Source: Candidatus Babeliales bacterium
Lineage (GTDB): Bacteria > Babelota > Babeliae > Babelales > UBA12411
Assembly: GCA_023128415.1 (NCBI GenBank)
Contig: JAGMEA010000019.1
Span: 1 to 61,219, forward strand
Reading direction: 5' to 3'
DNA length: 61,219 nucleotides
Positions 10,190 through 59,457 of the stretch are shown piece by piece. The notes under the pieces are model-generated. The model did not search any database. It was not told where the DNA came from and saw only the letters and a list, made by a program, of their open reading frames with translations. The first letter of the stretch is position 1. Each line of letters opens with the position of its first letter. A program made the translations under genes and the position numbers.

Positions 10190-13165
10190 ATGATCGATAA
10201 GGAAAAGGAAAAGTTAAGCTTCTCTCCGGGAAATTCTGGAAAGTATGGCGCCAAAGCTATTAAAGTCCTTGAAGGTCTAGATGCCGTTCGTAAACGTCCG
10301 GCTATGTATATAGGATCTACAAGTTTAAGTGGTCTTCACCATCTAGTATACGAGGTTGTAGATAACTCTGTTGACGAAGCACTTGCCGGGATATGTAGTA
10401 AGATAAAAGTAATCTTACATAAAGACGGATCATGTTCAGTTTTAGATAATGGTCGTGGAATACCCGTAGATAAACATCCAACAGAAAAAATATCTGCTGC
10501 TGAAGTTGTTCTAACAAAGCTTCATGCTGGAGGAAAGTTTGACAAAGATTCTTACAAATATTCGGGCGGTCTACACGGTGTTGGAATTTCCGTAGTTAAT
10601 GCCCTTTCGGAAGATTTAGAAGTAAAAATTTATAGAGACAATAAAATATACCAACAGTTTTATAAAAAAGGAAAGCCACAATCTCCTTTAAAAGAGGTTG
10701 GGGAAATTGAATTAAATGGTACTTATATAAAATTCAAACCTGATTCAAGCATTTTTGAAGTTACAGATTTTAACTTTGATGTTCTTTCTGCAAGATTTAG
10801 AGAGCTTTCTTTTCTAAACAAAGGCCTCAAAATCGAAATTAATGATGAGAGAACAGAACAATCCCACAGTTATCTTTTTGAAGGCGGAATTGCTTCATTT
10901 GTAAAACATGTTAACACAAAAAAAACTCCTCTGTTCAAAGAAGTTATTGAACTTAGTAAAGAAGATGATGTTTATGTTGTAGATTTTGCTTGTCAATACA
11001 ATGACGGCTATAGCGAACAAACATTTAGTTTTGTAAATAATATTCGAACAGTTGAAGGTGGAACCCATGAAGCAGGTTTTAAAAGTGCTTTAACAAAAGC
11101 ATGTAACAAATTTGCGCAAAAAACTAACCTTTTAAAGGATGGGAATTTATCTAGTGATGATGTTCGAGAAGGACTTGTTGCTGTTCTTAGTATAAAAGTT
11201 CCAGAACCTCAGTTCGAAGGACAAACAAAAACAAAACTCGGTAATGCTGAAGTTAAAGGTGTCGTGGATTCATGGCTATATTCTTTCTTTACAGAATATT
11301 TTGAAGAAAATCCTACAATCGGGAAAAAAATAATTCAAAAGGCTCTTTTGGCTCAACAAGCAAGAAGTGCAGCAAAAAAAGCTCGGGAATTAACTAGAAG
11401 AAAAACAGCATTAGAATCTTCAGTTCTTCCAGGTAAACTTGCTGATTGCTCAAATGACAATCCTGCAAGTACCGAATTATATATCGTGGAGGGCGATTCG
11501 GCCGGAGGATGTTTCTCTGGTGAAACCAAAGTTGCTTTAGTTGATGGCAGAAATTTAAGTTTTAAGGATCTTGTTAAAGAGCACCTGGAACGCAAGCAAA
11601 ATTATTGTTATACAATCACAAAAAATGGTTCAATAGATATAGCTCCAATTAAACATCCTAGAATTACAAAAACAAATGCGAAAGTAATCAAAATTGTTCT
11701 TGATAGTGATGAAGAAATAGCATGCACACCAGATCACTTGTTTATGTTAAGAGATGGATCTTATAAAAATGCTGAAGAACTAAAGACTAAAGACTCTTTA
11801 ATGCCTTTATATAAAAGTGAAGATAAAGAGCTCATTTTAGATCCTAAAAAATTAAAGTATATATGCTCAAAAACATTAAAAAATTCTTCTATAACAACAA
11901 ACACTAGCTCTCTAACTTTTTTTCATAACCACAAAATTAAAAAAATCGTTTCGATTAATAAAAAAATAGACGTTTATGATATTGAGGTAGATAAAACCCA
12001 CAACTTTGCCTTATCATCAGGAGTATTCGTACATAATAGTGCCAAACAAGCACGTGATAGACATACGCAAGCTATTTTACCATTAAGAGGTAAAATTATT
12101 AACGTAGAAAAAGCACGTCTAGACCGTATGTTAAACAATAATGAAATTAAGGATTTAATTACTGCAATTGGTGCTGGCATTGGAAATGAAGAGTTTGACT
12201 CAACAAAAGCTAGATACCATAAAATTATAATCATGACTGATGCCGACGTCGATGGCTCTCACATAAGAATTTTATTATTAACATTCTTTTTTCGACACAT
12301 GTTGCCTTTAATTGAAAGTGGATATCTATATATAGCACAGCCACCTCTTTATAAGGTAAAAGTAGGAAGAGAATCCCGCTATTTAAAAGATGATTCTGAA
12401 TTGACAGGATTTTTATTTGATTGGGCAGCTGGCAGTACCGAGCTAAAAATAAATAATCACAATTTCTCTGGTGATAATTGGAACAAACAATTAGAAAATA
12501 TACTGAAATACAACAGAGAACTTGAGAAACTAAGTCGTATCTTAGAGGTTGGTCCTAAATTTTGTCATGAATTAGCATTATTCTTAAAAGAAATTCAATG
12601 GGAAAAGGACAAGTATGATCTACAAACAACAGTAGATAAACTAAAAGAATATTTTTCCAAGTATGAAATTTCTGGGCTTGAAGAAGAAAACAATGAAGAT
12701 GAACTCGCACTAGAAGGTGATGTCGCTCCAAAAGCTATTTTAACATTTAAACATCTTAAGAGAACTTGGGAACTTCCAACCAAATTTTTTGGAATGGAAG
12801 AATCCGGGGTTTTATTAGATCTTTTAAGGCATATTGAACTTTCAGAAAAAGAACAATGGATATTAAGCCATACTGGAAAAGAACTTAAGAAAGAGGGTCT
12901 TGGATTGATAAGCCTTTGCGATACTATTATCAAAACAGGTAAATCTTTAATGACCATACAAAGATATAAAGGTCTTGGAGAGATGAACCCGGACCAACTT
13001 TGGGAAACAACTATGGATCCAAAAACAAGAAGTTTATTAAAAGTTAATATTGAGGATGCAATCGCGGCAGACCAATGGTTCACAGCTTTAATGGGTGATG
13101 TTGTGGAAGACCGCAAAGAATATATTGCGAAGCACGCACATTTCGTCAAAAATCTAGACGTATAA
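10190..13165 (+). CDS. gyrB: DNA gyrase subunit B, interrupted by an in-frame mini-intein
   Basis: GLDAVRKRPAMYIGST, GHKL ATPase and TOPRIM motifs (EGDSAGG / SAKQARDR split by the insert, IIMTDADVDGSHI), C-terminal YKGLGEMNP. Confidence 0.95.
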   Translation: MIDKEKEKLSFSPGNSGKYGAKAIKVLEGLDAVRKRPAMYIGSTSLSGLHHLVYEVVDNSVDEALAGICSKIKVILHKDGSCSVLDNGRGIPVDKHPTEKISAAEVVLTKLHAGGKFDKDSYKYSGGLHGVGISVVNALSEDLEVKIYRDNKIYQQFYKKGKPQSPLKEVGEIELNGTYIKFKPDSSIFEVTDFNFDVLSARFRELSFLNKGLKIEINDERTEQSHSYLFEGGIASFVKHVNTKKTPLFKEVIELSKEDDVYVVDFACQYNDGYSEQTFSFVNNIRTVEGGTHEAGFKSALTKACNKFAQKTNLLKDGNLSSDDVREGLVAVLSIKVPEPQFEGQTKTKLGNAEVKGVVDSWLYSFFTEYFEENPTIGKKIIQKALLAQQARSAAKKARELTRRKTALESSVLPGKLADCSNDNPASTELYIVEGDSAGGCFSGETKVALVDGRNLSFKDLVKEHLERKQNYCYTITKNGSIDIAPIKHPRITKTNAKVIKIVLDSDEEIACTPDHLFMLRDGSYKNAEELKTKDSLMPLYKSEDKELILDPKKLKYICSKTLKNSSITTNTSSLTFFHNHKIKKIVSINKKIDVYDIEVDKTHNFALSSGVFVHNSAKQARDRHTQAILPLRGKIINVEKARLDRMLNNNEIKDLITAIGAGIGNEEFDSTKARYHKIIIMTDADVDGSHIRILLLTFFFRHMLPLIESGYLYIAQPPLYKVKVGRESRYLKDDSELTGFLFDWAAGSTELKINNHNFSGDNWNKQLENILKYNRELEKLSRILEVGPKFCHELALFLKEIQWEKDKYDLQTTVDKLKEYFSKYEISGLEEENNEDELALEGDVAPKAILTFKHLKRTWELPTKFFGMEESGVLLDLLRHIELSEKEQWILSHTGKELKKEGLGLISLCDTIIKTGKSLMTIQRYKGLGEMNPDQLWETTMDPKTRSLLKVNIEDAIAADQWFTALMGDVVEDRKEYIAKHAHFVKNLDV
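11510..12037 (+). other. 176-aa mini-intein (HINT domain only, no homing-endonuclease-sized insert) within gyrB
   Basis: The insert lies exactly between EGDSAGG and SAKQARDR. It starts with Cys (CFSGETKVALVDG, block A), has TPDH (block B) and VYDIEVDKTHNFALSSGVFVHN (blocks F/G), and the +1 extein residue is Ser. Confidence 0.85.
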
Positions 13166-17445: not shown

Positions 17446-18834
17446 TTAACCTATACTACCTTCCATTTCCATTTCTATAAGTCGATTCATCTCTATTGCA
17501 AACTCCATAGGAAGTTCTTTTACAAAAGGTTCTACAAACCCATTAACTATCATTGATAATGCATCTTGCTCCGAAATTCCCCTACTCATTAAATAAAAAA
17601 TTTGTTCTTCTCCAACTTTATTTACTCTAGCTTCATGCCCTATATCAACATTTGATTCTGCTATATCGATATATGGATAAGTATCAGAACAAGACTTATT
17701 ATCTAAAATGAGTGCATCACATTGAACAAAAGATTTGCAATTCTTCATGCCATTGGGAACTTTTACAACTCCACGATAACTGCAACGTCCGCCATCCTTA
17801 CTTATAGATTTTGAAACAATTTTAGAACTTGTATCAGACGCTAAGTGAATAGCTTTCCCTCCAGAATCTTGTATTTGCTTCTCTGATGTCGCCATTGCTA
17901 TGGAAAGAATATCTGCTCTCGCTCCTGTACCTTTGAGAACAACACAAGGATATTTCATAGTAATACCACTGCCCAAATTTCCATCAACCCACTCAACCAA
18001 TGCATTTTCATGTGCAACTGCCCGTTTAGTCACCAGGTTATAAACATCTCTAGACCAATTTTGTATCGTTGTATAACGAACCCTAGCATCTTTTTTAGCA
18101 ATAATTTCTACAACCGCACTGTGTAATGAGTTTCTGTTATAGATAGGTGCTGTACAACCTTCTATGTAATGAACAAAGCTACCCTCGTCTGCAATAATTA
18201 AAGTTCTTTCAAATTGTCCCATTTGCTTAGAATTAATTCTAAAATACATTTGAAGAGGCATTGTAATGTGTACTCCCTTAGGAACATATACAAAGCTGCC
18301 ACCACTCCACACGGCGCTGTTTAAAGCTGCAAACTTATTATCATTTTTCGGAATTACAGAACCAAAATATTTTTTAAACAGTTTTGGATATTTTTTTAAT
18401 GCAGTATCTGTATCAAGAAAAATCACACCCTTTTCCGTCCATTCTTTCCGGAGCTTATGATACACATTTTCTGATTCAAATTGAGTTGATAAACCGGCTA
18501 AATATTTTTTTTCAGATTCTGAAACACCTAACCTATCAAAGGTATTTTTTATATCTTCAGGGACTTCATTCCAGTTAGCCGAAGTTTTTTCTACAGGCTT
18601 AACATAATAATATATATCGTTTGGATCTAAGTTTTTTAGTTTAGATGGGCCCCAGTCAGGCAGGAGTCGATCTTCAAAACATTTCAGCGACTCAAGACGG
18701 TATTGAAGCATCCATACAGGCTCTTGTTTTCTAAAAGATATATTTTTAACAATTTCTTCATTCAAACCCTTTTGAGATTTATAAATGTAATTTTCAGGAA
18801 TAAAGAAATCCCCATTAATATCTTTTTCTATCAT
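17446..18834 (-). CDS. sufB: Fe-S cluster assembly protein SufB
   Basis: 462 aa. Contains [45 protein letters not shown]. Confidence 0.95.
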
Positions 18835-21768: not shown

Positions 21769-23516
21769 TTTTCTTTTTTAAATTCTTTTTTGTTTATTAG
21801 ATTAACCCATTTTAAAGTTTCTACAAATAGGCTGCCTTTATCAACTTTTTCTTTTTCAACAGTAGAAAAGGAAAATCCCGCAATTCTGTGAAAATAATCT
21901 AAAAATTCCTCAATTTTTTCAAATGGCCAATCTCGATTCAATAAAAGGTCTCTAATCCAATCTTCACTAACAATACTTTCAGAAACTGAAAATTTATCGG
22001 CAAAAAAGGCTAACCAAAATGAATATAACTTTTTAACCTCACCACCAGTCTGCAATGTTTTCAATCTATTTTTTGCCGCAAATAAAGCCTCATGAGGCCA
22101 AATCAAGGAAGAGATTTTTTGCCTTAAAAATGAGTACGTCATACCTAAACTCCTGCTAGCAAAAACAACAGCAGGCAACAAAATCAAAAATAAAAACACC
22201 CAAAAATTTAATCTATTATCTCTTTCTGTAAAAAGACGGCCGTCCTCTTCAATTGAACGAATATCATTTTTTAATTTAGGATTAGAAATTTCAACTGAAC
22301 CAGTTCCAGTTGTTTTAAGCTCGTTAAATGCAACAACTTTTTCTCCCTTGATATCTAAATCTATAGGCTTACTGGTTAAAGTTTGAATCTCTCTTGACGT
22401 AGTATTAAAATATGTAAGCTTTTGTCCTGGGATCTCCCATTTACCCGGTTCATTCACCTGCAAAACATATTCAAAAAACTTTTTTCCATTATCAATATCC
22501 GCTACAACATTAGAGTCATAACACTTAAAGGAATCTGATAGGTTTAACTTAGGAGTTGCAATTTGCTCCAAATTGCCAGTGCCCTCTATTTCAACAGTAA
22601 GCTTTATTGGCTCATTCACTTGAGCTTCTTTCGAATCAACATTGATAGCAAAGTTTTTAATATTGCCAACTGCATCAACTCTTTCATTTAACTTAGGAAG
22701 ATCCTCAACATTAATTGTTAAAGCATTTGAATCAATTTTACATTCCCTAAACTGTGGTCTAAAAAAATCTGTAAACATATCATCAAAAAAACCTCTCCTT
22801 GTAGAAAGAAGCTCTTTGTATTGGGCCTTAAATGGCTCAATTGTTTTCATGCCAACTTTAATTGGCGTTAAAACAAAAGATTTTTCTATAACATTAAAAG
22901 GAGTCCCATTTAAAACTTCTGCCCCTCTATTAATATTCGCAACCTCTTTTACCATAAAACCAGGTATTTCTGGGGGGGCAAGATAAAGATTAGCAATATT
23001 GCCCTTATAATAAAATTTCGCAATAAGTGTTAAAGATTCACCTACAACAACTTTATCTTTATCAGCAATCAGTTTAAAAAAAACACTGTTATTTAAATTC
23101 TGCCTGCTTCTAACATTTTTGGAAGAACTTTTATTCGAAGACGAAACTTTAATCTTCAAATTATTAGAAGCTACTTGTTTCCCGTCAATTTTGACAGTAG
23201 CTGGACCTATTTCATACTCACCTTCTTTATCAGCTTGTAACTTATAAAGATAAGTGGTCTCAGAGGATATATTACCATTAATAAGAGTAACTTTTTTTGA
23301 AGAGCTTCTACCCACAATGTCAAACTTATTAATTCCCAAAAGCTTTAAATCTTCTGCTGATTGATTTGATGAAGATATAATTGCTTTAACCTGAAAGGTA
23401 TCGTCGATATTGATTTCTGTGTTGCTTAGTTCCAAGCGAACTTCAGCACAATTTAAATATGTAAAAAATAATAAGAAAAAAAATAATAAACGTTTCACTT
23501 TAGCCCCCATCACCAA
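21765..23516 (-). CDS. batD: BatD-like oxygen-tolerance protein
   Basis: 583 aa, signal peptide, repeated beta-rich modules, TM helix near residue 440. It lies between the TPR BatC and BatE with 4-7 nt overlaps. Confidence 0.7.
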   Translation of the reverse strand: MVMGAKVKRLLFFFLLFFTYLNCAEVRLELSNTEINIDDTFQVKAIISSSNQSAEDLKLLGINKFDIVGRSSSKKVTLINGNISSETTYLYKLQADKEGEYEIGPATVKIDGKQVASNNLKIKVSSSNKSSSKNVRSRQNLNNSVFFKLIADKDKVVVGESLTLIAKFYYKGNIANLYLAPPEIPGFMVKEVANINRGAEVLNGTPFNVIEKSFVLTPIKVGMKTIEPFKAQYKELLSTRRGFFDDMFTDFFRPQFRECKIDSNALTINVEDLPKLNERVDAVGNIKNFAINVDSKEAQVNEPIKLTVEIEGTGNLEQIATPKLNLSDSFKCYDSNVVADIDNGKKFFEYVLQVNEPGKWEIPGQKLTYFNTTSREIQTLTSKPIDLDIKGEKVVAFNELKTTGTGSVEISNPKLKNDIRSIEEDGRLFTERDNRLNFWVFLFLILLPAVVFASRSLGMTYSFLRQKISSLIWPHEALFAAKNRLKTLQTGGEVKKLYSFWLAFFADKFSVSESIVSEDWIRDLLLNRDWPFEKIEEFLDYFHRIAGFSFSTVEKEKVDKGSLFVETLKWVNLINKKEFKKEK

Positions 23517-28408: not shown

Positions 28409-30673
28409 ATGCCTAAGACTGATAAACATCTTCTTATTGTAGAGTCACCCGCAAAAATCAAAACCCTTTCTAAGTTTTTAGGAAAGGATTATAAGATTTT
28501 ATCCACCTTTGGACATATAAAAGATTTACCCCCCAAAAAGCTTGGCGTAGAATTTAATGAAAAGACCGGCAAAATCAAACTGGACTACACTCCTCTCAAG
28601 GATAAAGCCAAAACTATTAAAGAAATAGTCTCTGCAGCAAAACAAACTGGCGATGTCTTTTTAGCATCTGATCCTGATCGTGAAGGAGAAATAATTTCTT
28701 GGCATGTTAAGCAAGAAGTTGAAAAAGTAGTAGATAAATCCAAAATCTACCGTATAACCTTCAACGAAATTACAAAGCCTGCTGTAACAAAAGCTATAGA
28801 AAACAAAGGCAAAGTAGATGTACTTAAAGTTAACGCCCAACAAGCACGTCGTGTACTTGATAGATGGGTAGGTTACGAAGTGTCTCCTATACTTTGGAGA
28901 AAACTACAAAAGGGACTATCTGCTGGTAGAGTACAATCAGTAGCTCTTCTTGTAATATGTAATCGTGAAGAAGAAATTTTAAATTTTAAGCCTGAAGAAT
29001 ACTGGTCCATTCACGGAACATTTAATAAAAACAAGGCAAGCTTAATCGCAGAGCTTGTAAAAATAAATAACAAAGCTTTTAAATTAACCAATAAAGAACA
29101 ATCCGAAAAAACTGTTGCTGATCTAAAAAAACAAAATTATTCAGTTACAGATATTCAAGTAAAAAAGAGAATAAAGAAACCAGTCGCTCCCTTTATGACC
29201 AGTTCTTTACAACAAGCATCCTTCAACCAGCTTCATTTCTCTGTTAAAAAAACAATGGACATAGCACAAAAACTTTATGAAGGTTTGCCTCTTTCAGAAT
29301 CTCATCCAGAAGCTTTAATTACCTACATGCGTACGGATTCGTTAAGGCTTTCAGAAACCGCCTTAAATGATGGTAGAGGATTTATTAAAGAAAACTTTGG
29401 CAATAAATATTTATCTAAAACTGCCAATGTTTATGAAAAATCTAAAAGTCAGGATGCTCACGAAGCAATCAGACCAATTAATGTTAATGTAACTCCAGAG
29501 ATAGCTAATCGTTATCTACCTAAAGATGCCGCAAAACTTTATGGCCTTATTTGGAAGCGTTTTGTTGCCTCACAAATGACCCCAGCGGAATATCAACAAC
29601 GTCAAGTCAATATTGAAGGTGGAAAATATTTATTCCGCATCACTGGATCTACTCTAATATTTGACGGTTTTCTCAAAGTTTATTTGGTAGAAGATGAAGA
29701 TGACAAAAAAACAGTTATAATTCCAAAAGAAATAACAAAATCTACGATCCTAAATCTAAAGGTTGTAGATCCAAAACAACATTTTACTCAACCACCCCCT
29801 CGCTATACAGAAGGTTCTCTTGTAAAAGAGCTAGAAAAACAGGATGTTGGGCGTCCAAGTACCTATCAAACGATTTTATCTACAATTCAAAAACGTGACT
29901 ATACAACAGTTGATAAAAAAAAGTTTATGCCAACAGAACTTGGGATGACTGTTAACAAAATGTTAACAGCTAATCTCTCCGACATAATCAATGTGAAATT
30001 TACCGCAAAAATGGAAGAAGATTTGGATAAAATCGCAAGTGGTGATGTAAAACGGGATGATGTTCTTGTAAAGTTTTATAAAAAATTTAAAAAAGATTTA
30101 AAAACTTTTGCTGGAGCAGAAACAGGTAGAGAACCTGTACTAACAAAATTAAAATGCCCTAAGTGCGGTAAGCCGCTAGCAATACGTTTTGGAAAAGCTG
30201 GAAGATTTTTAGGTTGTACAGAATTCCCAATATGCGAATTTACAGCCAACTTTAAAGAAAAAGAAGATGGAAGTCTCGAGATACTTAAGCCAGAAAAACC
30301 AATGGTTTCTGACATAAAGTGTCCTAATTGTGGTAAAAAACTTATTCAAAAAATGGGTCGCTTTGGTCCGTTCTTAGCTTGTCCTGGATATCCAGAATGC
30401 AAATATATCCATCAAGAAAAATTAAAAACAAAATGCCCCGAGTGTGGTGGAGAAATTGTTAAAAGAAAATCTGCTAGAGGAACTTTTTGGGGTTGCAGTA
30501 ACTATCCTAAATGTAAGTTTGCTATTTTTGGCGAAGTTATAGAAAAACCTTGTCCAAAATGCAAAACACCCTACTTATTAATCACAAAAGACAAAGATGG
30601 AAAAGTTACTTATAAGTGCAACAACAAAGAATGTAACTATAGTGAAGAAGTAAAAGAATCTGCAGAAAGTTAA
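28409..30673 (+). CDS. topA: DNA topoisomerase I with four C-terminal C4 zinc ribbons
   Basis: TOPRIM N-terminus LLIVESPAKIKT, DPDREGE, active-site region ITYMRTDS, and repeated CPxCG...C..C modules. Confidence 0.95.
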   Translation: MPKTDKHLLIVESPAKIKTLSKFLGKDYKILSTFGHIKDLPPKKLGVEFNEKTGKIKLDYTPLKDKAKTIKEIVSAAKQTGDVFLASDPDREGEIISWHVKQEVEKVVDKSKIYRITFNEITKPAVTKAIENKGKVDVLKVNAQQARRVLDRWVGYEVSPILWRKLQKGLSAGRVQSVALLVICNREEEILNFKPEEYWSIHGTFNKNKASLIAELVKINNKAFKLTNKEQSEKTVADLKKQNYSVTDIQVKKRIKKPVAPFMTSSLQQASFNQLHFSVKKTMDIAQKLYEGLPLSESHPEALITYMRTDSLRLSETALNDGRGFIKENFGNKYLSKTANVYEKSKSQDAHEAIRPINVNVTPEIANRYLPKDAAKLYGLIWKRFVASQMTPAEYQQRQVNIEGGKYLFRITGSTLIFDGFLKVYLVEDEDDKKTVIIPKEITKSTILNLKVVDPKQHFTQPPPRYTEGSLVKELEKQDVGRPSTYQTILSTIQKRDYTTVDKKKFMPTELGMTVNKMLTANLSDIINVKFTAKMEEDLDKIASGDVKRDDVLVKFYKKFKKDLKTFAGAETGREPVLTKLKCPKCGKPLAIRFGKAGRFLGCTEFPICEFTANFKEKEDGSLEILKPEKPMVSDIKCPNCGKKLIQKMGRFGPFLACPGYPECKYIHQEKLKTKCPECGGEIVKRKSARGTFWGCSNYPKCKFAIFGEVIEKPCPKCKTPYLLITKDKDGKVTYKCNNKECNYSEEVKESAES

Positions 30674-37310: not shown

Positions 37311-38520
37311 TTAAAGCCCTGTCCCTATAGCGAATATGGGCATATAAACTGCTATCATTAAAACTCCTATAATAAGTCCAACCAAAACAATCAAGCATGG
37401 TTGCACAATGATTGTAAGAGTTTCAAAAACACGATTTAATTCTTCCTCAAATATAAAAACTGCCCTATCTAGCATTTCTATCAATTTACCCGACCGCTCC
37501 CCTACTGCGATAATAGCGATTAGTTCTTTAGGAAAGTATGTGCTTCCAATTAAGCTTAATGCCTCTTCTAAAGAATTGCCTCTTTGAACAAGTTTTATTA
37601 AATCTAAAAATTTATTTTTAAAAAATAAACTTCTTACGTTCTGTTTAGAATTATTGATTGATTCGATCAGGGGTACTCCACAGCGGAGTTGTAAAGATAA
37701 GGCGTAGACGAATCTAACAAGGTCTAATTTGTGTAATAATTGACCAACCACCGGCAGATTAAAAAGAAATTTATCTAGTTGAATCTTATATTTACTATCA
37801 ACATAAAAACGAAAAATTACAAAACTAAAAAATGTTAGCAAACTGATTATTATTACTGCGGGCATAAAATTATTGGCTATTGCAAATGTAAGTAACGTTA
37901 ACTTTGGTAAAGGTTTATCTAAAGATTTTAAAATAATTTCAAATTGAGGAATAACAAAGACAAAAATAACTGACATCAAAACCAATCCTATCCCTAAGGT
38001 CAAAAACGGTAATAGAAGAGACTGTTTAAGTTTCTTTTTAAATGATTCTTTCCAGGATAAGTAATTCGCCAAACGAAAAAACACTGTTTCCAAATCGCCA
38101 GAAGCTTCTCCTATTCTTACTGTTTGAACCATTATTGGTGAAAAAATATTTTTATGTTTATTAAGACTATTCTGAAATGATAAACCTGTTTTAAGGTTTT
38201 GAATCATGTCTTTAATAGCAACATGTAACTTTTTAGAAAAAAATTTGGCGTTAACTAGTTCTAAAGAATTTATTAAAGAAACGCCGCTACTAAGAAAAAC
38301 CGATAAGCTAGAAAAAAAAATATATTAGTTCTGAAGGCAAAACCTTATTTTTGAAAAATTTATAATTTTTTATTTTTTGTTCTTCGAACCTTAATAGCGC
38401 TATACCGCTTTTAAGTAAATGCTGTTTTAGCTCTGCTTCTGAGTTCAATGTTAAATAACCATTAAAAGTTTTTCCTTGCTGGTCAATGCCTTTCCAGTAA
38501 AACTTTTTTTGTTGCTGCAT
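37311..38520 (-). pseudogene. pilC: type IV pilus / type II secretion platform protein PilC/GspF, split by a frameshift in a T9 (plus-strand A9) run
   Basis: ORF 38308-38520 is the PilC N-terminus. ORF 37311-38207 is the remainder. The shifted frame between them reads SSLSVFLSSGVSLINSLELVNAKFFSKKLHVAIKDMIQNL with no stop. The total is 1210 nt, so 402 codons after removing 1 nt. Confidence 0.75.
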
Positions 38521-38873: not shown

Positions 38874-38950
38874 GCGCCCATAGCTCAACTGGATAGAGTA
38901 CCAGACTACGAATCTGGCGGTTAGAGGTTCGAGTCCTCTTGGGCGCACCA
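38874..38950 (+). tRNA. tRNA-Arg (anticodon ACG), CCA encoded
   Basis: GCGCCCA-TA-GCTCAACTGGATAGAGT-A-CCAGA-CTACGAA-TCTGG-CGGTT-AGAGG-TTCGAGT-CCTCT-TGGGCGC-ACCA. Confidence 0.9.
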
Positions 38951-38962
38951 GTAAGGTTCTTT

Positions 38963-39054
38963 GGAGAGATGGCTGAGTGGCTGAAAGCACTCGCCTGCTA
39001 AGCGAGTATACGGAGAAATCTGTATCGAGGGTTCGAATCCCTCTCTCTCCACCA
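38963..39054 (+). tRNA. tRNA-Ser (anticodon GCU), long variable arm, CCA encoded
   Basis: GGAGAGA acceptor, anticodon arm CTCGC-CTGCTAA-GCGAG, long variable arm, T-arm GAGGG-TTCGAAT-CCCTC, TCTCTCC-ACCA. Confidence 0.9.
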
Positions 39055-39082
39055 TTAAATTTTATGATATACTAATCTATAC

Positions 39083-39174
39083 GGAGAGGTGGCAGAGTGG
39101 TCGAATGCGGCGGTCTTGAAAACCGTTATTCCGGGAGACCGGAATCGAGGGTTCGAATCCCTCTCTCTCCTCCA
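39083..39174 (+). tRNA. tRNA-Ser (anticodon UGA), long variable arm, CCA encoded
   Basis: GGAGAGG acceptor, anticodon arm GCGGT-CTTGAAA-ACCGT, variable arm TTCCGGGAGACCGGAA, and the same T-arm as the preceding tRNA-Ser. Confidence 0.9.
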
Positions 39175-39204: not shown

Positions 39205-39654
39205 ATGCCAACAAACGAACGCAGCCTTAAAACTTATCTGGTTATTACTCCTTTTGAAAATCCTGATTCACAAACCAGAGCAAGGCTACTTTCCGTTAAA
39301 TCCAAACAATATTATAAAGATGCTATGACCTTATTTAATAGCAATTATTTTCGTATTAGAACAAAAAGGCATCATCGGTTTAACCTTTTATGGCCTGCAG
39401 CTTCATCATTCATACTTCTATATCATCTCGCAATTGAAATTATATTAAAAGCCTTAATTATTTTGAAAACATCCAAAGAACCAGATCATACTCATAATCT
39501 TAGGGCTTTATTAAAGACATCAGTCGAAAAATATCCTAAATTGTCTTCAATTAATGATAACTCGGAATATATGCAATTTTTAGACGAATTAGGCCCCCCC
39601 CCCAAATTTAATGGAGTGTCGTTATGGACCGTCAATAACAGTTTTCAACCGTAA
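39205..39654 (+). CDS. HEPN-domain-like protein, apparently truncated by a frameshift at a C10 tract
   Basis: LLYHLAIEIILKALIILKTSKEPDHTHNLRALLK fits the HEPN helix-2/3 pattern (E..lKAl....g....tH.L..L). The start is set at the first ATG after tRNA-Ser. The expected downstream RY-containing helix lies in the +1 frame. Confidence 0.6.
   Translation: MPTNERSLKTYLVITPFENPDSQTRARLLSVKSKQYYKDAMTLFNSNYFRIRTKRHHRFNLLWPAASSFILLYHLAIEIILKALIILKTSKEPDHTHNLRALLKTSVEKYPKLSSINDNSEYMQFLDELGPPPKFNGVSLWTVNNSFQP
39594..39603. repeat. homopolymeric C10 tract at the HEPN/GNAT frame junction
   Basis: Counted directly: ...TTAGG CCCCCCCCCC AAATTT. No comparable G/C run was noticed elsewhere in this AT-rich window (next longest seen: G7 at 22972-22978). 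Confidence 0.95.
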
Positions 39655-40537
39655 TAAAAAAAAGGGCTGGAAAAAAAAACCTCCTTTAGAAGAAATAAAG
39701 ATTATGATAATGGATTTTTTTAAAGTTCTCTCAGAAGAATTAGATAAAAGCTTAGATATAAATATAAAAATAGAAAATAACTTGAAAGAAAAACTCCTAT
39801 ACTTTCCATCTAAAATTAAATCCATGCAAGTAACAACAATCGATAATATGTCCTTGATAGATTCAAAACTTTCATCAAATACCTTTAATGCTATCTGCGA
39901 CGGAACGATCACAAAAGAATTAGCTCAACAAGTAGTAGACTATTATCAAAAAATTAATTCCCCAATGGCCTGGTGGATAGGACCAAATTCACAAAAAAAT
40001 GATACTGATGAAGTTTTAAAATCTGCGGGACTAGTACACGATGAGACGGATGTTGGAATGTTTTGTGATCTATCGAAAATACCAGATAGTTATCCAATGC
40101 CGAAAACTCTAAAAATTAAAATCTGTAAAACCCCTCAAGACTTTATAGATTTTGGAGAAGCAGCATCTACTTGCTTTGACTCACCAGACAATATAAATGT
40201 TAAAAAATTTTACAAACAAGTTGGACTCCTTAATAAGAAAGATTTTTCCAACTCTGTTTCATATATTGGATATGAAAATGATCAACCAATAGCTACAGCT
40301 TTTCTCCTATTGACAGATGTTGCCGGTATTTATGATATTACAACACACCCTGAAAAAAGAAATAAGGGTTATGGCTCTGCTATGTTCTATAAAGTATTAG
40401 CTGAAGCCAAAGAGCGTGGATATAAAGTTGGGGTCTTAGAAGCATCACCATCAGGTCTGAATATTTATAAAAGATTTGGATTTGAAGAAATCTGCAAATT
40501 CAATGTGTGGAGCAACAAAGGAATTATTAAAAAATGA
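39611..40537 (+). CDS. GNAT family N-acetyltransferase. Its 5' part, in this frame, continues the HEPN domain.
   Basis: The C-terminal half has IATAFLLLTDVAGIYDITTHPEKRNKGYGSAMFYKVLAEAKERGYKVGVLEASPSGLNIYKRFGFEE (motif A R-x-x-G-x-G). This frame is open from 39593. The true start is uncertain (39611, 39702 or 39824). Confidence 0.75.
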   Translation: MECRYGPSITVFNRNKKKGWKKKPPLEEIKIMIMDFFKVLSEELDKSLDINIKIENNLKEKLLYFPSKIKSMQVTTIDNMSLIDSKLSSNTFNAICDGTITKELAQQVVDYYQKINSPMAWWIGPNSQKNDTDEVLKSAGLVHDETDVGMFCDLSKIPDSYPMPKTLKIKICKTPQDFIDFGEAASTCFDSPDNINVKKFYKQVGLLNKKDFSNSVSYIGYENDQPIATAFLLLTDVAGIYDITTHPEKRNKGYGSAMFYKVLAEAKERGYKVGVLEASPSGLNIYKRFGFEEICKFNVWSNKGIIKK

Positions 40538-40620: not shown

Positions 40621-40842
40621 ATGCCTACCAAAAATCCTAGAGTTAACATTACTTTTGAAGAAGCAACGGCTGCTATGCTTAGTTCTTTAGCAAAGCAAGA
40701 ACAAAAGTCTTTATCTAGTTTAGCTAAAGAACTAATTCTAGAAGCATTAGAGAGAAGAGAAGATATGGTTTTATCTTCAATTGCAAAAACTCGTGATTCG
40801 GGAAAAGGAAAAAAAATAAAGCATAAAGATGTCTGGAAATAA
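40621..40842 (+). CDS. type II antitoxin, RelB/ParD-like (ribbon-helix-helix)
   Basis: 73 aa. RVNITFEEATAAMLSSLAKQE is an RHH-like N-terminus. It overlaps the toxin ORF by 14 nt. Confidence 0.7.
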   Translation: MPTKNPRVNITFEEATAAMLSSLAKQEQKSLSSLAKELILEALERREDMVLSSIAKTRDSGKGKKIKHKDVWK

Positions 40843-41110
40843 GCCGTATAAAGTTGAATACCTAACCTCTGTTATTGATGAGGACATTTCTAAGCTAAAT
40901 AAAAAAATAAAATTGATGATTAAAAGGGCAATAGAGAAACAACTAATGCTTGATCCTATTGGATTCGGTAAACCCTTGCGCTACAGCTTAAAGGGACATA
41001 GGCGTTTACGTGTTAGTAACTATAGAGTCGTATATCGTATTAACGCTAATTCAAATGTAATTCTTATTGTAGCAATAAAACATAGAAAAGAAATTTACGA
41101 AAAATTATAG
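40829..41110 (+). CDS. relE: type II toxin, RelE/ParE superfamily
   Basis: 93 aa. DPIGFGKPLRYSLKGHRRLRVSNYRVVYRINANSNVILIVAIKHRKEIY is the classical RelE/StbE pattern. Confidence 0.85.
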   Translation: MSGNKPYKVEYLTSVIDEDISKLNKKIKLMIKRAIEKQLMLDPIGFGKPLRYSLKGHRRLRVSNYRVVYRINANSNVILIVAIKHRKEIYEKL

Positions 41111-59218: not shown

Positions 59219-59457
59219 TGTAACCTCCATTAGAGTTACTAGTTATACTAACTCCAAAGCCCTACAAGGACTCTAGAAAAGGGCGATATACCCTTATTCA
59301 CGAGATTACATCCACCTATATTCCTGTCAAAAGCCCCAAACCAAAGAGACCTAAAAAAAGGGCTAAAAAAAGATATTTTTTGAAAATTTTAGAAAAAAGC
59401 AACAAAAAAGGAGGAAGTTTTACCTTCCTCCTATAAATTTAAAGCTTGATTATCAAA

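Follow-up and report, generated by a model that had tools for sequence, protein, structure and literature searches.

A ten-cytosine tract splits a HEPN-like domain between two frames in a "Candidatus Babeliales" bacterium: a candidate slipped-strand switch of a HEPN-GNAT gene fusion

Introduction

Is a run of ten cytosines that interrupts a gene of an uncultured cold-seep bacterium a slipped-strand switch, a step in gene decay, a recoding site, or an error in the data? The run lies in a 61,219-nucleotide stretch of a "Candidatus Babeliales" bacterium (GenBank assembly GCA_023128415.1, contig JAGMEA010000019.1, positions 1 to 61,219, forward strand), the whole of which was analyzed and is called the window below. 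An earlier note, made from the letters alone, placed the run inside a HEPN-like open reading frame (ORF) upstream of a GNAT acetyltransferase ORF and read it as either a phase-variable junction or a homopolymer error. Our analysis shows that the tract is real and intrinsically hypermutable and that it shifts the frame; as a switch, it is a candidate only.

Results

Poly-C tract and its place in the window

The features needed for the argument are the following.

39594..39603, plus strand: C10 homopolymer, sequence CCCCCCCCCC, with the flanks TTAGG and AAATTT
39205..39654, plus strand: HEPN-like ORF as read with C10, 149 aa, truncated; Pfam HEPN PF05168; homologues align over about residues 19-131, and the profile hidden Markov model (HMM) over positions 11-131
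39604..39769, plus strand: remainder of the HEPN-like domain beyond the tract, read in the +1 frame that also contains ATG 39611; located by alignment, BLASTP, and HMM; corresponds to helix 158-180 in the model of the homologue P0028
39710..40537, plus strand: GNAT acetyltransferase as annotated, 275 aa; Pfam Acetyltransf_1/7/9/10 above cut-offs
39205..40537, plus strand: whole HEPN-GNAT fusion frame, for which the tract must be C9 (443 aa) or C12 (444 aa)

The sequence bears out the position of the C10 run within the HEPN-like ORF, where it fills codons 131 to 133 without interruption and is at least as long as the 7 to 8 bases at which G/C runs are hypermutable. No other G/C run in the window reaches 8. 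The earlier note was also right that the AT-rich window (32.7% GC) holds nothing comparable, the runners-up being a G7 at 22972 and two C6 runs. Under an i.i.d. model, 0.0024 runs of at least ten C are expected in 61 kb, and one is observed. Likewise, CCC is the rarest kind of Pro codon in the window (8.7% of Pro codons, 0.3% of all codons), and the expectation for three of them in a row is 4e-4 in the 15,290 codons examined. Because both C10 and CCC-CCC-CCC are so rare, the tract is not a by-product of composition or coding. Three long homopolymers lie between the start of the tract and the GNAT start, namely, C10 itself, an A8 at 39646-39653, and an A9 at 39671-39679 (plus strand), the latter two inside the post-tract HEPN segment (NRNKKKGWKKKPP).

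Reading frames and tract variants

The most plausible start of the HEPN-like ORF is ATG 39205, which lies 31 nt after tRNA-Ser(TGA) at 39083-39174. With C10, translation from this start reaches a stop at 39652-39654, which is the 17th codon past the tract, as the note had counted; the final 16 residues of the 149-aa ORF (KFNGVSLWTVNNSFQP) are out-of-frame sequence. The +1 frame, which the note had described as open through the GNAT domain, is indeed free of stops from 39593 (right after TAG 39590-39592) through 40537. Beyond the tract it contains no stop, against 2 and 6 in the other two frames. In silico, C9 gives a protein of 443 aa and C12 one of 444 aa, which share the GNAT stop at 40537, in agreement with the single HEPN-GNAT protein of about 444 aa that had been predicted; C8 and C11 give 134 aa and 135 aa, respectively. 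A one-unit change of the tract thus toggles between an intact and a truncated product, and the product of the ON state holds the complete family domain. By inspection, no consistent Shine-Dalgarno sequence was found among the window genes, so the internal GNAT starts cannot be ranked. A promoter and terminator scan returned no more signals than shuffled sequence.

The tract splits one HEPN-like domain

A profile was built from 11 homologues with the window sequence left out, and the three forward frames were searched with it. The upstream (5') frame covers HMM positions 11-131 with E=5e-27 (formally the alignment extends to 159, but it is weak beyond the tract), and the +1 frame matches positions 132-177 of 182 (E=3e-10). 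The claim that the HEPN domain continues in the +1 frame past the tract is therefore upheld, and since the homologue profile changes frame at C10, the tract splits one HEPN-like domain. The same is seen from both sides in pairwise comparisons: most homologue alignments to the 149-aa ORF stop at residues 129-131, i.e., at the tract, and the +1-frame peptide gives an ungapped BLASTP match to the C terminus of the homologue P0037 (E=1e-10). In the C9 reading, the window sequence matches seven homologues from end to end. The post-tract segment contains the invariant RY...N...GW..K....E and the last core helix (PLEEIKIMIMDFFKVLSEELDKS), and all seven family-invariant residues (R139, Y140, N150, G154, W155, K158, and E163 in the C9 reading) are kept, all of them after the tract in the +1 frame. 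Identity to the homologues is 0.35 after the tract (0.47 among the homologues) and 0.43 in the pre-tract core (0.41 among the homologues), numbers that are small and a difference that is not significant.

Assignment to the HEPN group is supported by Pfam HEPN PF05168, which scores 24.7 bits on residues 71-128 (cut-off, 22; profile positions 29-82 of 117), and by precomputed PF05168 matches in four homologues. The AF2 model of P0028 is helical (pLDDT 83, pTM 0.80), and its six best Foldseek matches in the PDB are all HEPN proteins (4nqf, the HEPN toxin 7bxo, 1wol, 2hsb, sacsin 3o10; further down, 8xeh), with probabilities of 0.93-1.0, target-normalized TM scores of 0.54-0.64, and weak E values of 0.013-0.29. 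On this model the tract site falls in the loop after helix 118-129, with the RY motif and the long last helix 158-180 following it. The C10 tract is thus predicted to sit in a loop of a HEPN-like four-helix domain, before the RY motif and the last core helix. Because that last helix is encoded after the tract, the 149-aa product lacks a core helix.

The family is best called HEPN-like, and any activity of it is putative. The Rx4-6H or Rx4-6D RNase motif is absent from it, as no H or D stands 5-7 residues downstream of the invariant R139; an H first occurs at +10, where it varies within the family and is missing in the window copy. No MNT partner of the HEPN-like gene was found in the window or at 11 related loci, where the neighbors vary, and a PDB sequence search with the HEPN profile returned nothing meaningful.

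Relatives of the HEPN-like protein

The family was detected only by exhaustive HMMER search and was missed by word-based search; a word-based search with the fused N terminus returned only the window's own 149-aa ORF. Among 1.84 billion representative proteins, the exhaustive search found nine relatives, six of which are stand-alone proteins of 177-205 aa. Eleven related loci (10 metagenomic loci with a full-length match and 1 Logan locus) encode intact proteins of 180-208 aa. All HEPN-like homologues are stand-alone (177-208 aa), lie in a single frame, and are free of the tract. None of the 11 related loci has a GNAT neighbor or a G/C run of 7 or more. The earlier note had held that orthologues forming separate genes without a tract, together with reads uniformly supporting C10, would refute phase variation. 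The homologues are unfused and tract-free, and to that extent the comparison leans against it, but they are not syntenic orthologues.

The family of about 180 aa is very rare, with about 20 public members, and has an extra N-terminal region. Its members come mostly from marine-sediment-type metagenome contigs, and their neighbors (loci L009-L018 and L100) are diverse genes of mobile or conflict type, among them HTH/XRE, RelE-like toxin, resolvase, Fic-like, restriction-endonuclease-like, and SbcCD genes.

Alignment of the window sequence with the homologues shows a two-column gap at "PP" in seven of seven homologues, exactly at the tract, where the homologues read ELG-KNFDGIRY and the window reads ELG-PPPNLMECRY. 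As judged from this alignment, the C10 run contains a lineage-specific insertion: to an ancestral tract of roughly C3, two Pro codons (six bases) and one frameshifting base have been added.

GNAT acetyltransferase and the fusion

The annotated GNAT ORF starts at 39710, and 39611 and 39704 are further in-frame starts. The ORF from 39611 has 308 aa, and the conserved GNAT core begins near its E55 (about position 39773). When the fused sequence was searched against 5.8 billion proteins, the matches were the 275-aa GNAT of the window itself and 25 relatives (254-274 aa, 42-54% identity). All 25 are stand-alone proteins that begin at a Met aligned with M34 of the 308-aa ORF (ATG 39710). No fused HEPN-GNAT (C9 or C12) protein is present among these 5.8 billion public proteins. 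The genomic contexts of the GNAT relatives differ from one another, and none has an upstream HEPN gene; one of the relatives carries the label of a Wolbachia MAG.

The first 16 to 20 residues or so of the annotated GNAT are the last HEPN helix, so that the stretch MDFFKVLSEEL is at once the end of the HEPN domain and the annotated GNAT N terminus, a refinement of the earlier note. The HEPN homologues end at "...SEELDKSLDI", which corresponds to residues 41-50 of the 308-aa ORF, leaving about 6 residues between the end of the HEPN domain and the GNAT core, with no stop between them. These alignments show a true, lineage-specific, in-frame gene fusion, in which the HEPN-like gene has lost its own stop, in this genome alone, and the last HEPN helix has taken the place of the variable N terminus of the GNAT.

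The GNAT keeps 48 of 48 family-invariant residues, including R-x-x-G-x-G; the acetyl-CoA motif Q/R-x-x-G-x-G/A is present as RNKGYG, with G253, Y254, and G255 invariant. The GNAT family profile matches Legionella VipF by sequence (E=8e-5). VipF is also the top structural match of the AF2 model of the 308-aa ORF, followed by other tandem GNATs; this model has low confidence (pLDDT 62), and only its GNAT half was used, as a lead. PADLOC found no defense-family match for the fusion, for one homologue, or for the two small downstream ORFs. No phase-variable HEPN gene was found in the literature, and the HEPN survey of Anantharaman et al. mentions no GNAT (PMC3710099). Both the HEPN-like family and the single case of its fusion with a VipF-like acetyltransferase are new facts, if minor ones.

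Surroundings of the locus

A cluster of tRNA-Arg(ACG), tRNA-Ser(GCT), and tRNA-Ser(TGA) genes (38874-39174, plus strand) lies immediately upstream of the HEPN start. Neither a downstream direct repeat of the tRNA-Ser 3' end nor a GC anomaly was found, and hence no sign of a recently integrated island or of its boundary. The GNAT is followed directly by a type II toxin-antitoxin pair (plus strand), in which an RHH_5/DUF6290 antitoxin gene (40621-40842) overlaps a ParE-family toxin gene (40829-41110), followed by two small ORFs (70 aa, then DUF2905). Farther away, GyrB (10190-13165, plus strand, 991 aa) contains an intein: residues 441-519 match the NCBIfam intein N-terminal splicing region, and the match to the gyrB model is broken at residue 441. 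TopA (28409-30673, plus strand) partially resembles the chlamydial TopA/SWIB model, below cut-off, and SufB (17446-18834, minus strand) has its closest GTDB match at 75% identity in an entry labelled "uncultured Pseudomonadota."

A second frameshift next door

A neighboring gene carries a similar lesion.

38312-38320: A9 run (T9 on the coding strand), which splits one minus-strand gene into 38520..38308 and 38207..37311; pilC/gspF-type T2SSF

This A9 breaks an orphan pilC/gspF-like gene, 1.3 kb from C10, into ORFs of 70 aa and 298 aa. An A8 would give back a protein of 402 aa with two T2SSF stretches and a continuous "...ELIYFFSSLSVFLSSGVSL..." motif. The A9 is confirmed by a Logan contig at 32.9x, and the other samples have no coverage there. 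The frequency of such lesions was assessed by changing 122 homopolymers (A/T of at least 7, G/C of at least 6) by ±1 and 364 shorter runs by ±1 or ±2. Apart from three chance merges, long flanking ORFs were merged by only two runs, C10 and the A9 at 38312-38320. The merges by short runs, at 21774, 41634, and 59365-59409, were set aside as chance, for they joined separate neighboring or noncoding ORFs. Both the C10 and the pilC lesions are of +1 base, and each lies in the longest run of its kind. The pilC lesion thus weakens the case for C10 as a specially evolved switch and strengthens the explanations by gene decay and by slippage-tolerated frameshifts.

The tract in independent assemblies and samples

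The window is an ENA scaffold of a cold-seep metagenome, and this scaffold has C10. C10 is found again where the same run was assembled independently by Logan (32.6x), and Logan contigs of three more samples from this study cover the tract with 0 mismatches and 0 gaps, likewise reading C10. The tract length is therefore C10 in four of four samples of one study, at the level of the contig consensus, in which minority lengths are invisible. Otherwise the four samples are sequence-identical and thus evidently contain one strain. In one sample (X3, 4x) the contigs break at the tract, yet both pieces carry the full C10; a reading of this break as tract variation was rejected, given the depth and the full C10 on both sides, in favor of a coverage effect. 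A chimeric join through a poly-G read artefact was also rejected, because the homology crosses the tract with the expected spacing. JGI metagenome contigs were scanned with a DNA pattern that fixed both flanks exactly and left room for 4-20 bases in between; there was no hit and hence no alternative allele. No RNA runs containing the locus were found, and the runs of two other cold-seep studies (X5 and X6) do not cover it.

With two assemblers and four samples agreeing on C10, an assembly error is unlikely, and of the two readings offered by the earlier note, that of a homopolymer error has lost most of its ground.

Discussion

A possible slipped-strand switch in the OFF state

As the best explanation we tentatively propose a slipped-strand switch between ON (fused) and OFF (unfused), sequenced here while OFF, a candidate that we would back a little less readily than not. 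Replication slippage may have lengthened a tract of about C3 to C9, which is in frame, the additional Pro-Pro being tolerated in the loop, and one more C would then have produced the frameshifting C10. In the C10 state ribosomes would stop 17 codons past the tract and release a 149-aa HEPN fragment from which a quarter of the domain is missing and which is probably inactive. The acetyltransferase would be made only from the internal ATG at 39611, 39704, or 39710, without the HEPN domain. Loss of one C or gain of two would restore the HEPN-GNAT protein of 443 or 444 aa. By analogy with measured slippage rates, the locus should flip between split and fused at appreciable frequency. Where measured, G/C runs of such length slip at about 1e-5 to 4e-3 per division: in Campylobacter jejuni the rates are 1.8e-3 for G10->G9, 1.0e-3 for G9->G10, and 3.7e-4 for G10->G11, and phase-variation frequencies in mismatch-repair-proficient meningococci are 1e-4 to 1e-5 (PMC3401435).

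Several observations argue for the switch. The domain is split exactly at the tract, and the insertion is absent from 7 + 10 homologues. The tract is a perfect C10, built from the least used Pro codon of a genome with 33% GC, and a ParE/RHH pair stands beside the gene. The post-tract frame is free of stops and retains seven of seven invariant residues, which points to a recent or reversible lesion. Against the switch, C10 is uniform at the consensus level in four samples, and public collections contain no ON-state protein; one long G/C tract per 61 kb gives no sign of a genome-wide contingency-locus strategy; the adjacent pilC-like gene is broken by +1 in an A9, which fits plain gene decay; the post-tract segment is slightly more diverged (not significantly); and the HEPN-like family lacks Rx4-6H. 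A stronger version, in which the locus is a working switch of protein architecture, alternating between the fusion and a free, internally started acetyltransferase plus a dead HEPN stub in a conflict-type gene beside ParE/RHH, seems to us unlikely.

Possible decay, recoding, or artefact

Gene decay is nearly as likely as phase variation. Assuming fixed pseudogenization, the extra C, an ordinary slippage mutation, would have inactivated a dispensable HEPN moiety in a gene-losing genome, the GNAT would survive from an internal ATG, and reversion would have no biological role; doubtful as we hold this to be when taken by itself, it is a serious contender. It accounts well for the second +1 homopolymer frameshift (A9, 38312-38320) in the pilC/gspF-like gene 1.3 kb away, for a C10 that is uniform in four samples while the fused allele is found nowhere, and for a GNAT family that is a stand-alone protein everywhere else, and the slightly greater divergence of the post-tract segment (0.35 versus 0.47; not significant) points the same way. 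It sits less easily with 35 post-tract codons that the GNAT does not need and that are still open, with seven of seven invariant residues, with a C10 that is perfect in spite of the AT-biased composition, and with a gene that has no other lesion. Alternatively, C10 would be the normal state and full-length HEPN-GNAT would be made by recoding, either through +1 ribosomal frameshifting (tRNA-Pro, CCC-C, Pro-Pro-Pro stall) or through RNA-polymerase slippage. A +1 shift on any first CCC codon re-pairs with CCC and yields exactly the C9 protein, and CCC-C has been documented as a sequence on which tRNA-Pro, above all the UGG isoacceptor, is prone to shift by +1 (PMC4519876). Homopolymer frameshifts of endosymbionts are rescued by transcriptional slippage (PMC5009743), and the present AT-rich genome has two +1-type homopolymer frameshifts in otherwise intact genes. 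However, basal CCC-C shifting is low, and the 0-frame codon after the run is AAA, neither a stop nor an obviously hungry codon. No stimulatory element was found, and the site is conserved in no orthologue, the relatives being tract-free and in one frame. Moreover, transcriptional homopolymer indels are mostly insertions in A/T runs (PMC5574713), whereas for rescue the present C run would have to change by -1 or +2. We therefore regard recoding as improbable.

Least credible of all is that the data are wrong, i.e., that a sequencing or assembly artefact hides a true C9 and the genome simply encodes a fusion gene. Homopolymers are classic sites of indel errors, all data come from one study and presumably from one platform, and the nearby second +1 homopolymer frameshift could mean a systematic error. 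Against this stand the agreement of two assemblers at 32.6x and three further libraries with C10 and zero gaps. Frameshift-like behavior was seen in just 2 of the 122 runs (A/T of at least 7, G/C of at least 6); a change of 1 or 2 bases in the other three A9/T9 runs (14309, 47777, and 61091) joined no ORFs on their flanks, and the A9 at 39671 fits the frame that reads into the GNAT. With so few runs affected and the other A9/T9 runs untouched, a general +1 bias is not evident, and an artefact is very improbable.

Significance

To our knowledge, phase variation has been studied almost only in host-adapted pathogens. If the stronger reading, that of a working switch of protein architecture, is true, this locus would be a phase-variable domain fusion in an uncultured, possibly host-associated cold-seep bacterium. 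Should the tract prove to vary, an uncultured lineage of the deep sea and a HEPN/GNAT gene of conflict type would join the known cases of homopolymer phase variation, and the switch would attach and detach a domain instead of silencing a gene. If the tract is invariant, the locus still serves as a clean example for annotators, in which a "hypothetical protein" ORF and a "GNAT" ORF are one fusion gene broken at a homopolymer, and likewise for the pilC-like gene.

Comparison with known systems

The locus resembles the contingency loci of Campylobacter jejuni (cj0031, cj1139, and capA), Neisseria, and Haemophilus in having a perfect intragenic G/C run of 8-11 in an AT-rich genome. As in C. jejuni and Neisseria, a one-unit change toggles the frame, and the tract length is in the range for which 1e-4 to 4e-3 changes per division were measured (PMC3401435). 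It differs from the C. jejuni and Neisseria loci in showing a single C10 allele at consensus and one tract in 61 kb and in that HEPN-GNAT is not a surface or restriction-modification gene. Furthermore, the OFF state would here detach an N-terminal domain from an enzyme that is possibly still made internally. The slippage-rescued frameshifts of Buchnera, Blochmannia, and Citrobacter tssM are likewise single-base indels in the longest homopolymers of otherwise intact genes, and two such indels lie within 1.3 kb here. Those cases are poly(A/T) and are rescued mostly by insertion, whereas one of the present runs is poly-C and needs -1 or +2. With tRNA-Pro +1 frameshifting (EF-P / m1G37) the tract shares three CCC codons, each followed by C, and a Pro-Pro-Pro stall motif; CCC-C shifting is an error that is normally held low, and its use at the C10 locus would be hypothetical.

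As to the two domains, the HEPN-like family is like PF05168 and HEPN-MNT proteins (4nqf, 7bxo, 1wol, 2hsb, and 3o10) in its Pfam match above cut-off and its fold matches, and unlike them in having neither Rx4-6H nor an MNT partner, at a size of about 180 aa. The GNAT, a member of a family of about 268 aa, is like Legionella VipF (PDB 7wx5/6wqb) in having a degenerate N-terminal half and an active C-terminal half with R-x-x-G-x-G, but identity to VipF is only about 17 to 20%, and the structural likeness is drawn from the model with pLDDT 62.
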